Source: an uncultured bacterium
Lineage (GTDB): Bacteria > Gemmatimonadota > Gemmatimonadetes > Gemmatimonadales > Gemmatimonadaceae
Assembly (NCBI GenBank): GCA_963978095.1
Contig: CAXBQP010000002.1
Location: forward strand, 81,733-145,732
Direction: 5' to 3'
Length of the DNA: 64,000 nt
Shown here: positions 52,101 to 61,100 of the stretch, in pieces
Position numbering within the stretch: the stretch's first letter is position 1
Layout of the letters: each line of letters starts with the position of its first letter
Position numbers: made by a program

Positions 52101-55100
52101 CTCGAGGTTCAGGTTCCGGTGATCGACGTGCGACACGAACTCGGCTTCGACGATCCGCTTGACCTCCCCAAGGTCCACGACGTACCCCGTGCGCGGGTCC
52201 GGCTCGCCAGTCACAGATACTTCCAAAACGTAGTTGTGACCGTGCCAGTTCGGATTGTTGCACTTTCCGAACAGCCGGGTGTTCTCCTCATCGCTCAGCG
52301 CGGGGTTGTGCACCCGATGCGCGGCGTTGAAGGTGAGGCGACGCGTGACGGTGACGGCGGGCATGGCTGAAGCTTACCTCAGCGGCGCCCGGAGAGCCAC
52401 TTCGCCACCAATGCGCCACCGAGGAACCCTCCGAGGTGTTCTTGCCAGCTGATCCCGGGCTGCCCCGGCAACACGCCGAAGACGAGTCCGCCCCAGAGGA
52501 ATGTGACGGCACCGCTGACCACAATGGTCCCGAGACTGCGGGCGAACCATCCGCCGAGCATCAGGAATCCGAAGTAGCCGAAGATCACGCCGCTCGCCCC
52601 GATGTGTACGCTGCCTGGCACGCCAAGCAGCCACGCCACGAGGCCGCCGACGATGGTCGCCGTGACCGTGACCCAGACGAAATGGCGGGTGCTCCGCAAC
52701 AACACGAGCCAGCCGAGGACGACGAAGGACGCGGAGTTGGCAACCAGATGCGCGAGATTCGCGTGCAGGAACGGGGCGGCGAAGATTCCCCAGAGTCCCC
52801 GTTCCGTCCACGGTTGCACGCCGAAGACATCCAGCGCATGGCCCAGCAGGGCATCGAGGCCGAAGACACCCCACATCACCGCGAGCGACCCGCCCAGCAC
52901 CTGCACATGCTGGGTCACCGCGCCCGTTGTAGAGCGCCACAGACCGGGGGACCGGGGAGCGCGGCGGGTTTGCAGAGCCATGGACGCACGATGGTAGAAT
53001 GGTGGGACAAACGAAAGCCCCGCCGTCACTGACGGCGGGGCTTCTGTTCCGCGAAGCTGGGATCACAGGAGGTGGAACGAAGAGGGGTTTTTGAAGCCCT
53101 GTCGAATGTATGAGGTCCTCACCCAGCTTTCCGCCTTCCCGCCGTGCGGGCATGGCGTCAACCAAGATATCGAACCCACTCGGAGGACTTATCGGCTCAA
53201 AAGTTATTCCTCTTCGCCCCTACTGTGCGGGAATGTAGGATGCGGTATCTTTCGCGTCAACGCACCAAACCCCTACAGGAGTCGGACCCGATGGACGTGG
53301 GCATCATCGCAGCGATCGGCATGCTCATCCTCTGGGGCGTGGGCACCTTCGCGCTCGAGGCGCCAGGGTACATCCACATCCTGCTGACGGGCGGCGTCTT
53401 TCTGCTCGTTTGGCGCATCGTCAAGCGGCAGGATGACACCGCCGCGACGTCCCGCCGCTAGATCTCCCAGTTCGAGATGAGCAGCCCGGCGGCGGGCGCG
53501 CGCTCCTCGTAGTCGCTCAGCGACATCCGGAGGTCGGTCCACCGCACGCGCGCGCCGACCTCGATCAACGTCCGGAAGGTGCGGGCGTGCTCGCTCTGCA
53601 CGCGGATCGCGGCCCGCACGGCGCCGCTCCGCCGCGCATAGTCCGCGAGCAGGGGCAACAAATCCATCAGCGCGGCCTCATCCTGAAGCACGATCTTCAG
53701 CACCCGTAGCTCGTCGCGCGCGCGCCCTTCGACCAGTGACGTGCTGTGGCACAGTGCGAATCCCACGAGGCGCCCATCTTCGTGCACGAGGATCGTGTCG
53801 CCGAGGCCGAGTGCGGCGGTGAGGCGCAGTTCGCGCGTGTAGTCGTAACCCGCCTGCACGCGGCCGGCGAGGGCGGCACAGGCCGCAATCGCACGCTCGC
53901 GCTCGGCGGGCTCGAGGGCCGAGAGCAACATCGGGGCACGGAGCGATGGCGAGGCTTCCAGCGTCATCGTGAGCGTGAGGCGGCCGGGCACGAATCCCAA
54001 TGACGCGTAGAACCCGATGTTGTCCATCGTTCGGGGCATGGTCTCCAGCCCGATGACGCGACACCCCGACGCCTTCAAGTGGTCGATCGCGGCCTGCACG
54101 ATCAGCTTGCCGTATCCGAGCCCTTGGCTCTCCTCACGGACCGCGAGCGGACCCATCCATCCTTCGCCGCCGGAGTGGTGCGCGAGGTTGAAGGCGACGA
54201 TCCCGCCGCGCGAGTCGCGCCAGAGCATGGCACCCGCGTCGGCATTCTCGATCGCGTAGCGCCAGATCGCGGGGTTCAAGGGCGGCACGCGCACGCCCAC
54301 CAAGCCGTCGCGTCGATAGCGATCGGTGAAGGCCTCGCTGAACATCACGTTGAGAGGCCCGATATCCTGCTCGAGGATCGGGAACGGGCCGTGGAGTTGG
54401 CCTTTCACATGCGTGTCCGGCTGCATGGCCATCAGAGCGCCTCGACGCCGACCGGCGCCGAGGCGCCGCGTCGCACCGTCGCCGCCCCGCTGTTCGGATC
54501 GAAGGTCACCTCGATGACCTGATCGAGCCCGTCCCGGACACCCTCGATGTGCGTGATCAGGATGACCTGCTCGAAGCGGTCCTGGAGTCCGCGCAAGAGC
54601 TCGACGACATTCTGGCGTCGCGTGTCGTCCAGCGATCCGAAGATCTCGTCGAGCACCAGCAGCGAGAACGACTGCCCGGCCCGCTCGGCGATCATCTGCG
54701 AGATCGCGAGCCGCAGCACGAGATTCGCGAGATCCTCCTCTCCCCCCGAGATCACCGGTTTCGGGATGCCGTCCTCGAGGACGACGATCCGGTATTTGTC
54801 ATCGAGTTCGACTTCGGTGTAGCGCGCGTCGGTGAGTTCGGTCAGGAACGCGCTTGCCAACTCCGACAACTCGGGACGCAACTGGAGATTCAGCTCGGTG
54901 CGCAGATCGGCGTACGCGCGATGCAGTTCGTCGTGCATGCGCTTGTCGGCCTCGCGTTCGGCGAGCTGCGCCTCGATCTGCAGCAGCTCCGCTCGCGTCG
55001 CCGTCGCGCGAGCCAGCGCCTCTGAGGCCATGGTGGCCGCGCCCTGCGCGCCCACGGTGTCGAGCGCGGCCGTGCGGCAGGCATTGTCGGCGACGCGATA

Positions 55101-58100: not shown

Positions 58101-61100
58101 AGGGGTCGTCCGGCGGACTGCTCTTGAGCGGCGCGACGCGTGGCCGAGATTCGGCGGACTTCGGCGCCACGCGCCGCTTCAGCTGGGACCGAAAGTAGCC
58201 CTTCACGTCCTCCGGCTTCGCCATCAGCGTCCGGTTGCGCGCACGGATCACCTCGTCCTCCTCGGCGAGCGCGATGCTCTCCTTGACCCAGTCGAGCGTC
58301 ACCGAGGGATCGAGCAGGCGCAACGCCCGCGTCACCGCACTCTCCAGCGTTTGCTCGGGCGCTTGCGGGAATCGCTCCACTCCTTCGCGTCCCGAGAGCA
58401 CGGCCGGACGCGGGAAGCGCACGAACACCGGCTGGGTGAAGTGCGGATGGCGCACCATCAGCTGTCCCTTCTCGAGGGTGCTCAGCTTGGTACGGGTGGC
58501 GGGCGTGAGCGTGGCGTAGCCCGGCGTGGCGAGCTCATCGGGGTCCATGCGGCCGAAGAGCGCCGTGCCGGAGTTGCCGACCACGCGGCGGTGCACCTGC
58601 GAGCGGAACTGCTGCGCGGCGAAGAGCACGAGTCCGAGATAGCGTCCCCGCTCGGCGATATCGAGCAGCATCGCGCGCACATAGGTGTCCGGACCGTCGC
58701 TCGGCGCGTACTTGTTGAGTTCGTCGACGAACACCACCACGTGCTCCACGCCGAGCGTGCGCGACTCCAGTCGCTCACGCAACTGCGAGACGATGCGCGC
58801 GAAGATGAGGTCCTGTGCGTCCTCTTCGAGGTTCGCGACGTCAACGACGTACACCGCCCGATCCTCGAAGGCCCCGAACGGGAGATCACTCACCGAGCCG
58901 TCGTCGGTCACGAGTCCGCGGCAGCGCGTCGAGATGTTGGTGAGTCGATTGCGCACCTTGCGGATCGTGGCCACGTGGTGGGTGCGCCACGACTCCTGGT
59001 TCTTCGACTCCATCATCTGAAGGAGGTCGCGGAACCACGCTTCGAGCTCGCCGAACGACTGCACGGTGTGCGGCTCGCTCAGCATGGTGTCGCTGAACGG
59101 CTGGTCGACCACGCGCTCCTTGATGAAATCGATGAGCGCATCGGCCTTCGCGTCGATGTCATCCTTGTTGAGCAGGACCTCCGCGAACTGCAACACTTCG
59201 CGCAGCCCCCACGTGAGCGGGTGCACGTTGTGCGCGAGCGCTTCGTTCGACCGCAGCGTGTTGAGTGCGTAGCCGCGCGCCGTATACGGCGCGTAGTACT
59301 TCACGTTCCGGAACGGCTCGGCCGGGACGCCGAGCGTGTCGTAGAGCGCGCGATCGGAGTCGTCGAGCCGGGAGGCGGGCTGATCGAGGAAGCAGAGGTC
59401 CGGCCCCTTCACGTTGAAGCAGACGGCGGCAACCTTCCCCTTCTTCTCGGGGAAATGCGCGAAGATCGAGGCGAGCAGCCATTCGACCGCGCTGGTCTTG
59501 GTTGCCAATCCCGAGACGCCGCTGATGTTCAGGTGGGCAGCTTCGGGGCCGAGCAGGAAATCGGCGTCGAGGTGCACCGGCGACGACGTCGCTCCGGCGC
59601 GGTACAGTCCGACCGGGATGGCGGTGCGGTTCTCCCCGGAGGCATAGCCGTCCATGCGAAGTGCGGCGGCCACGTCGTGGTCGTCGGCGAGATGCACCGT
59701 GCCTGAGCCCACGGGCTGGAGCGGCTCCTCGGGCACGTGACGCAACACGGCGGCGGTGTAGAGCCGGATCTCCGTGCGGCGCGTCGGGGCCTGGTGCGCG
59801 GTGCCCGGCTGTCCGTCGTGCCCGAGCACATCGTGAAGCGGCGTCTCGAGGTCGGTGTAACCGAACCCTTCCGTGACCACGCCGAACGCGACCGGGAGCG
59901 CACCGTTCACCGGGGTCGCACCCTCCACGCGCACGATCGTCCCGATCCCGACCGGCGAGTCGAGCGCGGTCCAGAAGTGGAACTCGTGCGGCGTGTTGGG
60001 ACGTCGCTCGGTGGCGACGACGCGGCCCAGAACGGTAGTCATCCCTGAAAATACGCTACGGCGCGATGGCGCGCAGATAGCGCTCGCAGTCGGCAATCCC
60101 GTACGCCATCGCATGCCAGCGGTGGTCGGGGAGGGCCAGTGGGGTACGCTCGGCCAGCACCCAGCGCGACACCAAGTCCGCACGCTCGGCACGGAACCCC
60201 TCGCGCGCGATCTCGATGCGGACCAGCCCGAACATCGGGTCGGTGGCCTCGCGCAGGCGCAGGTACCAACTGGCCACGGCGGTCCGGCGCGGCGAACGGA
60301 TCTCGAACGCCGTCGTCCGCTCGCCGACGCGCAGGCGCGTCACCACGCCGATTCCCTCGCCCGCCGCATACAGCGTCCGATGCGACTTCACCACACCGAC
60401 CGCGCGCGGACTCCGCGCCGCATCCCCCGCGCCGGAGATCCCTCCGTCAACATAGATCGCCCCACCGCCCGTGGCGCACCACCGTTCCGCAAGCGCGGTC
60501 TCGAGGCGCTCCCGTTCGCGTTGCACCGCCGTGCGTGCGAGGGCCAGCAACAACTGCGGATGCTGGGCCTCGGCGGCATCGCCACCATCGAGCGTGTCGT
60601 GCACCGGGATCCCGGCGGCATCGAACGTCGCGAGTTGTCCGGTCGGGGTGACGGCGCGCGGGAGATAGACGCGCGTCGAGAGTTCGGGCGCGCCGTTCCA
60701 GGTGTGCAGGGTGCGATCGCGCCGCTCGCGGACCACCGCCGCCACGGTGCCGAAGATCACGGGCACCCCGCCCGGGAGATACTGCAGCACACGCGTCGAC
60801 TGGATGCCATCGAGGAACGCGGCGATTCCCACGAGCGGGGTCGGATCGAGCGCCCGCACGGCGAGCGTCTCCCCTTCGATCGGCACGGCGGCCTCAGTGC
60901 GCGGCGGCTCCATCTCGAGCGCCAATCGCTCCAGCGACGGCGCTCCCGCTGTCTCGAGCCGCCATCCCCCTGCCGGCGCCCCGGGCGCCGCGCGAAGCGC
61001 GCGCAACACATCGGACACCCCGACGGTCGCCGCGCGACTGGCGCGTCCGTCGTCGGGCGCGGCGATCATCACTCGATCCCGATGTCCCACGCCTGCTCGA

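Follow-up and report, generated by a model that had tools for sequence, protein, structure and literature searches.

A nurA-herA-mre11-rad50 gene cluster in Gemmatimonadales: near-core, shared with other phyla, and probably an accessory to RecJ-RecQ in DNA end processing

Introduction

The window analysed here (the whole stretch of 64,000 nucleotides from contig CAXBQP010000002.1 of an uncultured Gemmatimonadaceae bacterium) contains neighbouring nurA, herA, mre11 and rad50 genes. What does such a cluster do in a bacterium? NurA-HerA has no settled role in bacteria, where the pair has been studied in Deinococcus and Thermus only. An earlier note described the cluster as an archaeal-type operon and as the likely main route of DNA end resection. 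We consider it fairly probable that it is a vertically inherited housekeeping module of DNA end processing acting in parallel to RecJ-RecQ. It looks like an optional helper next to this ordinary route, not the main repair machine.

Structure of the locus

The cluster consists of five closely spaced genes on the minus strand, all intact and without internal stop codons. Listed with their two upstream neighbours, the genes are:

53458-54432, minus strand: GNAT acetyltransferase, 324 aa
54432-56858, minus strand: rad50 (sbcC), split ABC ATPase with a coiled coil, 808 aa
56855-58045, minus strand: mre11 (sbcD), phosphoesterase, 396 aa
58090-60042, minus strand: herA, FtsK/HerA ring ATPase, 650 aa
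60056-61069, minus strand: nurA, predicted RNase H-fold 5'-3' nuclease, 337 aa
61069-61347, minus strand: gene for an Lrp/AsnC ligand-binding domain on its own, 92 aa; the stop codon overlaps the nurA start in TGATG
61443-62657, minus strand: class I/II aminotransferase, conserved, anchoring the locus on its upstream side (position of the start codon approximate)

The directly adjacent nurA and herA are 13 nt apart, and 44 nt separate herA from mre11. The mre11 and rad50 genes overlap by 4 nt (ATGA), rad50 and the GNAT gene by 1 nt (TGATG). The overlaps between genes suggest a single transcript. A scan of the locus for promoters gave nothing above chance, and a scan for terminators gave no internal one on the minus strand. 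The Lrp/AsnC-domain gene is a conserved upstream neighbour in many related loci and is outside the repair set.

The packing is operon-like, as proposed, and the gene order is borne out by comparison: nurA-herA-mre11-rad50 holds in 39 of 51 related loci, the remaining 12 reaching a contig edge first, and the GNAT gene comes next in 37. Throughout Gemmatimonadales the cluster occupies one chromosomal site, flanked by the aminotransferase and GNAT genes. As a point against one module, the spacing between herA and mre11 exceeds 700 nt in 15 of 41 loci, with one or two unrelated genes intervening in the 8 of them that were read, and it reaches 8 kb in Rubrobacteraceae.

The GNAT gene, although probably co-transcribed with the cluster, is inherited independently of nurA-herA. 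It is present in all 108 sampled Gemmatimonadales genomes and remains where nurA-herA have been deleted. Thus it is a neighbour; its role as a fifth subunit was rejected, and its inclusion in the system finds no support.

The four proteins

No Pfam or NCBIfam family matches the NurA of this genome, and its identification is backed by a profile match and the predicted fold, with invariant catalytic residues. A profile of 43 NurA sequences matches Deinococcus NurA (E 8.2e-7). The top four Foldseek rows for the structural model (pLDDT 89.5) are all NurA structures, the best being 7F6D_G (E 1.2e-11), 1ZUP and 2YGK, with TM-scores of only 0.45-0.51. Motifs I and II (D87-G88 in FLDG, D208-G209 in VDG) are invariant in the 43 sequences, and so are K228, R317 and E329. 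The latter stands in place of the histidine of the archaeal C-terminal motif III (LxxAH), as Glu does in other bacterial NurA. K228 aligns with residue 221 of the Deinococcus chain, read as K201 given a tag offset of 20 residues; R317 can be paired with Deinococcus R309 by motif position, an inferred match. A crude dN/dS for nurA, measured against L001, is 0.09. By analogy, the protein is predicted to be a dimeric, HerA-dependent 5'-3' nuclease. A search at the scale of 1.84 billion gave 1533 relatives of NurA, which carried neither names nor gene context. Pfam and NCBIfam fail to pick up the genes here, so a survey of repair pathways would overlook them.

The assignment of HerA likewise stands, the sole PDB match being Deinococcus HerA (7F6D, E 4.6e-45). 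The same search retrieved no archaeal HerA, and the NCBIfam model HerA_Thermprot scores just 18 bits. The nearest relatives are bacterial, and two archaeal rows are farther away. Walker A K182/T183, the catalytic acidic residue D215 and Walker B D440/E441 are invariant in 72 sequences, K182/T183 and D440/E441 mapping to Deinococcus K175/T176 and D487/E488. However, S448/T506 stand where Deinococcus HerA has R495/R552, the two pore arginines that it needs for translocation. Arginine occurs at neither site in the 20 Gemmatimonadales rows, versus 39 and 36 of the 52 others; R480 is invariant in their place. Since these two arginines are not retained, the motor step is an assumption. The predicted complex of HerA (136-650) with Mre11 scored 0.01, which counts neither for nor against an interaction. 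The genome contains FtsK, so HerA is not required as its stand-in.

Mre11 has the phosphoesterase metal motifs (D8/H10, D55, N92/H93, H159, H196). It retains DLH, GD and GNH, and the final motif is GDYH where GHYH is usual; at position 194 this protein and 3 of 40 relatives have Asp, and the remaining 37 have His. No second SbcD-like gene of this kind was found in the genome. Rad50 has Walker A at 30, the CPTC hook at 405, the signature at 703 and Walker B at 734. Its best-scoring model is archaeal (PRK03918, 180 bits, vs 97 bits for TIGR00618 SbcC), and its structure matches are archaeal too. The scores of Mre11 are split (TIGR00619 74 bits, Mre11_Sulfo 68), and its best PDB match is archaeal. 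By score, then, Rad50 and, weakly, Mre11 look archaeal. For NurA and HerA, whose closest counterparts are those of Deinococcus, the label "archaeal-type" is unsupported.

Distribution and the question of the main resection route

The distribution was assessed in 108 Gemmatimonadales genomes and 43 genomes from outside the order. As had been proposed, the cluster is near-core in Gemmatimonadales (herA in 98/108, nurA in 84/108). The claimed absence of NurA outside the order fails, as 12 of the 43 genomes have it. Purifying selection and intact motifs are seen for all cluster genes.

AddA, AddB and RecC were not found in this 91%-complete genome, in agreement with the claimed lack of AddAB/RecBCD. 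PF12705 as the only AddAB marker was rejected, as small nucleases match it too. Tandem pairs and a profile for AddB served to score AddAB instead; the profile failed on the pair of G046, which was recovered separately. The sole PF12705 match here (contig C95, under the cut-off) is a 580-aa frame unlike AddA or AddB. RecJ, RecQ, RecO and RecR are above the cut-off. Ku was searched for and none was found.

One possibility is that AddAB gave way to the cluster in the Gemmatimonadales ancestor and that the cluster is the main end-resection machine, as in Sulfolobus. The claimed rarity of AddAB/RecBCD holds (clear in 23/108 Gemmatimonadales, 5 more ambiguous), while outside the order PF12705 is found in 43/43 genomes and the AddB profile in 39/43. 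AddAB/RecBCD are enriched in genomes without nurA (9-10/24 vs 14-18/84), and RecC occurs in two of four herA-less genomes of family f1 (G063, G087). The pattern recurs in the sister family, where herA is present in 38 of 41 genomes, tandem AddAB-like pairs in 4, and further single matches in at most 4. However, the enrichment is borderline (Fisher p 0.045-0.064, kin not being independent), a weak trace of AddAB/RecBCD compensating for nurA loss. RecJ (106/108) and RecQ (103/108) are better conserved than nurA. Neither nurA nor AddAB/RecC was found in 14 genomes that are 95-100% complete, the loss of nurA being verified on contiguous DNA; by proxy only, these argue against a principal or essential role. 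Nor do the two systems exclude each other: the four genes occur beside AddAB in family f7 and beside tandem AdnAB-like pairs in 4/4 actinomycetes. Thus the designation as likely main route is unsupported, and replacement of AddAB is an unlikely history.

In 8 genomes nurA-herA are cleanly lost and mre11-rad50-GNAT are intact; in 15, nurA alone is cleanly lost and herA still adjoins mre11-rad50, the reverse being seen in one genome. These are not search failures: 23 of the 24 nurA misses, checked on DNA, are real gaps, and in G040 the locus stops at a contig edge. Of the three components, Mre11-Rad50 stays constant, HerA is retained as a rule, and NurA is the most dispensable. The 15 genomes with herA and no nurA point to a job of HerA independent of resection. 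The conserved unit might then be HerA with Mre11-Rad50, serving fork rescue, hairpin removal or DNA pumping, with NurA as an optional add-on. The HerA pore residues unlike those of Deinococcus fit this, as does the report that Sulfolobus Rad50-Mre11 co-precipitates HerA and not NurA (PMC2288612). Nevertheless, we regard it as quite improbable. Five of the 15 genomes belong to one genus, some herA copies may be heading for loss, FtsK is available, and the stable pair elsewhere in this HerA subfamily is nurA-herA without mre11-rad50 (25 of 39 non-Gemmatimonadota loci).

A 2026 review states that bacterial NurA-HerA mainly destroys phage or plasmid DNA entering the cell (PMC13748450). Repeated losses, inter-phylum transfers and the TdpAB structure 8WFD in Foldseek row five for NurA fit such a role, which is nonetheless very improbable here, given a fixed site amid housekeeping genes, retention of herA in about 90%, presence of this HerA family in just 6 of 72,556 plasmid records, and no fitting PADLOC model (none for NurA, a weak match for HerA). 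Degradation of free phage ends could be a side activity of the housekeeping module.

Comparison with known systems

The archaeal operon herA-mre11-rad50-nurA of Sulfolobus and Pyrococcus clusters the same four families. However, the gene order differs here, and the sequences of NurA and HerA fall outside the archaeal clade. The system is reportedly essential in Sulfolobus islandicus, whereas in Gemmatimonadales it is dispensable.

NurA-HerA of Deinococcus and Thermus (7F6D; HepA) provide the closest solved structures for both proteins and share the Walker motifs, the NurA catalytic residues and the presence of RecJ and RecQ in the host. Their HerA, however, is of another subfamily, about one-third identical; R495/R552 are not kept here, and a C-terminal tail of about 90 aa sets the two apart. 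In Thermus, mre11-rad50 are not clustered with nurA-herA (PMC5448004), unlike here. Deletions of nurA or herA in Deinococcus and Thermus gave modest or improved resistance to damage (PMC9960219), which fits an accessory role.

The four-gene arrangement in a bacterium is already in print: in Oceanithermus profundus the SbcD and SbcC genes lie downstream in nurA-hepA-sbcD-sbcC, which was termed archaea-like (Blesa et al. 2017, PMC5448004) and presented as recruitment by one genus. Compared with that published description, the cluster reported here reaches 8 phyla and has near-core status in a whole order.

HerA-based defence systems (TdpAB, Sir2-HerA, DUF4297-HerA) likewise join a HerA motor to an effector. 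An anti-phage role belongs to TdpAB, whose structure 8WFD matches the fold of the NurA nuclease. The present cluster differs in its nuclease without a PADLOC match, its weakly matched HerA, its fixed core locus and its near absence from plasmids.

Spread, possible mechanism and natural test cases

All four genes are present in 56 of 80 motif-sampled herA loci, the 56 spanning 8 phyla, often alongside AddAB/AdnAB-like genes. In Rubrobacteraceae the cluster is common and AddAB-like genes are likewise patchy. The cluster is thus not peculiar to Gemmatimonadales. Trees of the four proteins from 46 clusters share 19-24 of 22-28 well-supported splits with each other tree, including groupings that span phyla; nurA, herA, mre11 and rad50 are inherited jointly as a unit. 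Genes travelling together in this way contradict the review cited above, as had been claimed.

By analogy with the archaeal and Deinococcus proteins, Mre11-Rad50 would bind a break and clear blocked or hairpin ends, the HerA ring would pump the duplex into the NurA dimer, which would remove the 5' strand, and RecO/RecR would then load the recombinase onto the 3' tail. Where AddAB is missing, the module is probably most important at ends that are blunt or blocked, and it is not required, as RecJ-RecQ remains. A bolder reading, doubtful but worth stating, is that a sizeable fraction of bacteria (Gemmatimonadales, Rubrobacteraceae and many Actinomycetota) use a fourth end-resection route, in which Mre11-Rad50 hands ends to HerA-NurA and the four-gene unit moves between phyla; in Gemmatimonadales and Rubrobacteraceae it would have displaced AddAB and would now chiefly handle blunt breaks, the HerA motor holding on to DNA through another pore residue.

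Nature thus offers a ready test set: genomes that have the cluster and no AddAB, the cluster beside AdnAB-like genes, herA but no nurA, or neither. Some of these combinations occur in named cultured genera (Micromonospora, Actinoplanes), and a genome of Gemmatimonas phototrophica has the complete cluster.

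Identification of the cluster genes

The cluster is real and correctly identified. Together with the acetyltransferase gene that follows it, it is located as follows:

53458-61069, minus strand: five ORFs (nurA, herA, mre11, rad50 and the GNAT acetyltransferase gene) with no internal stops

Mre11/SbcD, Rad50/SbcC and the GNAT protein are named by Pfam and NCBIfam, and this Mre11-Rad50 pair is the sole one found in the genome. The products of the first two genes (337 and 650 aa) belong to no real Pfam or NCBIfam family. The earlier note had assigned this unannotated pair to NurA and HerA, which is confirmed. 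The single PDB match of the 650-aa protein is Deinococcus HerA (E 4.6e-45). The 337-aa protein reaches Deinococcus NurA at E 0.068 in a single-sequence search, and a profile of 43 relatives does so at E 8.2e-7. The top four Foldseek rows for its model (pLDDT 89.5) are 7F6D NurA, TM1739 (twice) and Sulfolobus NurA. The first two junctions are gaps (13 and 44 nt) and the last two are overlaps (4 and 1 nt), which suggests a single transcript for the five genes. All five have a crude dN/dS of 0.03-0.09 when compared with the nearest locus.

NurA residues D87, D208, K228, R317 and E329 are present in 43/43 rows, and both Walker motifs of HerA are kept. In Deinococcus HerA, the pore arginines R495 and R552 are required for translocation, according to PMC9960219. 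These sites align to S448 and T506 here; arginine occurs at them in none of 20 Gemmatimonadales rows, and R480 is present in all 20. The best score of Rad50 is with archaeal models (180 bits versus 97 for SbcC), and the match of Mre11 is divided between bacterial and archaeal models. Therefore the term "archaeal-type", previously applied to the whole operon, suits the gene set and Rad50, but not NurA and HerA.

At residue 194 of Mre11 (57464-57466), normally a histidine metal ligand, this protein has aspartate, as do 3 of 40 relatives.

Conservation of the locus in Gemmatimonadales

The order nurA-herA-mre11-rad50 was found in 39 of the 51 loci fetched with NurA, followed by the GNAT gene in 37; in the remaining 12 the contig edge is reached first. 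Thus the conserved order claimed in the earlier note stands. The herA-mre11 spacing exceeds 700 nt in 15 of the 41 loci having mre11. The spacers of eight of these, where ORFs were read, contain one or two genes on the same strand whose starts resemble signal peptides. Spacer genes in many relatives encode exported-looking proteins of about 280-320 aa (fetched loci L034:12820-13575, L043:12740-14481, L046:10606-11460 and others).

The flanks contain further conserved genes. A gene for a stand-alone Lrp/AsnC ligand-binding domain of 92 aa, without the DNA-binding part, occupies 61069-61347 and overlaps the nurA start; in most relatives it lies about 1 kb from nurA. Across relatives its product is 71-97% identical. 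Downstream, at 51305-52364, are putative folE- and queD-like genes, which also come after the cluster in many relatives and belong to the conserved neighbourhood. In family f2, a small conserved gene (about 170 aa) between an aminotransferase gene and nurA/herA is retained after nurA loss (L048:9304-9807, L041:9325-9840, L300:2007-2534).

The site was read in 23 of the 24 nurA-less genomes of the order, G040 being at a contig edge. Both nurA and herA are absent from eight, with mre11-rad50-GNAT intact; in 15 nurA is absent and herA still adjoins mre11. Genome G104 has kept nurA without herA. These losses are real.

The GNAT gene (53458-54432) adjoins the cluster in Gemmatimonadota only. It is retained in every herA-less genome of the order and absent from the related families f4 and f5, both with this herA; thus it is a neighbour, not a member of the operon set as had been proposed. 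Found in 108/108 genomes inside the order and in 1/43 outside (E 1e-20), it is an order-wide signature gene. Its residues 38-60 form a long invariant stretch.

AddAB, RecC and the role of the cluster

Genome counts within the phylum refer to one sample of 151 genomes at least 90% complete, 108 of them from the order (including the window's genome); the unpublished G053 and G093 are among the genomes counted. Clear AddAB, defined by AddB-profile matches minus one weak RecC cross-hit plus genome G046, was found in 18/108 and RecC in 5/108, together 23; five more genomes are ambiguous, with only a fragment or a single gene. In the rest of the sample PF12705 matches 43/43 genomes and the AddB profile 39/43, and therefore the reported AddAB contrast holds. 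Among the 24 nurA-less genomes AddAB or RecC is clear in nine, ambiguous in one and not found in 14, against 14-18 of the 84 nurA-bearing ones (Fisher p 0.045-0.064, overstated because kin are not independent).

The RecC genomes G063 (L322, G063:C1), G088, G132, G136 and G087 all belong to the window genome's family; RecC is otherwise rare in the sample, and two of the five have lost nurA-herA. L324 (G118:C3) and L075 (G123:C1) have addAB broken up by numerous frameshifts, either through decay or through assembly error. RecQ (TIGR00614, E 1e-60) was found in 0/15 genomes of the other class (G002-G024, families f10-f12), nearly all with AddAB.

We consider it fairly probable that the cluster is an accessory end-processing module parallel to RecJ-RecQ. 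Mre11-Rad50 would clean the DNA end, HerA would feed NurA, and RecO/RecR would load the recombinase, all alongside RecJ-RecQ; these steps are transferred from archaeal and Deinococcus work. RecJ, RecQ, RecO and RecR exceed the cut-offs in the window's genome, so a complete-looking alternative route exists; no Ku was found there. This route is better conserved than NurA. RecJ is present in 106/108 genomes of the order and the RecQ family in 103/108, versus 98/108 for herA and 84/108 for nurA. Thus the note's functional headline, that the cluster is the main resection route, is unproven and partly contradicted, and we regard it as unlikely. That the cluster is linked to AddAB loss is best supported by a second lineage, Rubrobacteraceae (the family of sampled genome G155), with herA in 38/41 genomes, tandem AddAB-like pairs in 4/41 and up to four more single hits, all at unstated genome completeness; the set includes the unpublished G180, G186 and G193. 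Still less likely is a job of HerA-Mre11-Rad50 without NurA; in its favour, PMC2288612 reports that Sulfolobus HerA, not NurA, co-precipitates with Rad50-Mre11. Defence is very improbable: HerA of this family occurs on 6 of 72,556 plasmid records, and none of the PADLOC models fits.

The cluster in other lineages

FastTree trees of the four proteins from 46 clusters, compared for cluster proteins alone, have Spearman correlations of 0.88-0.97, inflated by the deepest split, and share 19-24 of 22-28 supported splits. Cross-phylum groupings recur from tree to tree. This agreement indicates that the four genes probably move as a unit. The lineage-wide picture merits a report, and it corrects a recent review (PMC13748450). 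Literature searches gave no paper whose title or opening abstract lines describe the cluster in Gemmatimonads, Actinobacteria or Rubrobacter; comparative papers or supplements, such as the bacterial alignments of PMC9960219, may mention it earlier. An archaea-like architecture is already described in PMC5448004 for Oceanithermus profundus, whose sbcD and sbcC lie downstream of hepA. A link between SbcCD and HerA-NurA is left open in PMC4663267, and PMC2588523 contributes nothing further.

A Rubrobacteraceae locus is sister to the Gemmatimonadales cluster in 4/4 trees. When the HerA tree is widened, two Armatimonadota-like rows are nearer, followed by Rubrobacteraceae and Chloroflexia; two archaeal rows are more distant. 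Fetched Rubrobacteraceae loci have the four genes in the window's order in 11/12, with herA and mre11 up to 8 kb apart. Among non-Gemmatimonadota loci of the same HerA subfamily, 25/39 have nurA-herA only.

A motif scan, unranked by likeness, gave at least 120 stretches; 40 without flanks were excluded and 80 scored. Among the matches listed, all four genes occur in 56/80: Actinomycetota 33/41, Gemmatimonadota 13/17, Acidobacteriota 3/4, Chloroflexota 1/3, Bacillota 0/3, Myxococcota 2/2, Pseudomonadota 2/2, Cyanobacteriota 1/1 and Sysuimicrobiota 1/1, counts that are not frequencies because the motif selects. Cluster-bearing actinomycetes have a tandem AdnAB-like pair in 4/4 cases; the same search gave no match in one Rubrobacteraceae draft genome.

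Family f7, from another order of the same class, has a distant herA in 12/16 genomes and an AddB match in 16/16. All four genes are present in 6/7 fetched loci, in two gene orders. A search with the f7 HerA gave the arrangement herA-mre11-rad50-nurA in 62 of its best 80 loci, mostly from Actinomycetota. The f7 loci (L082-L088) comprise two separately acquired four-gene clusters; in each of the four trees these fall with Actinomycetota, which points to transfer of the cluster as a whole.
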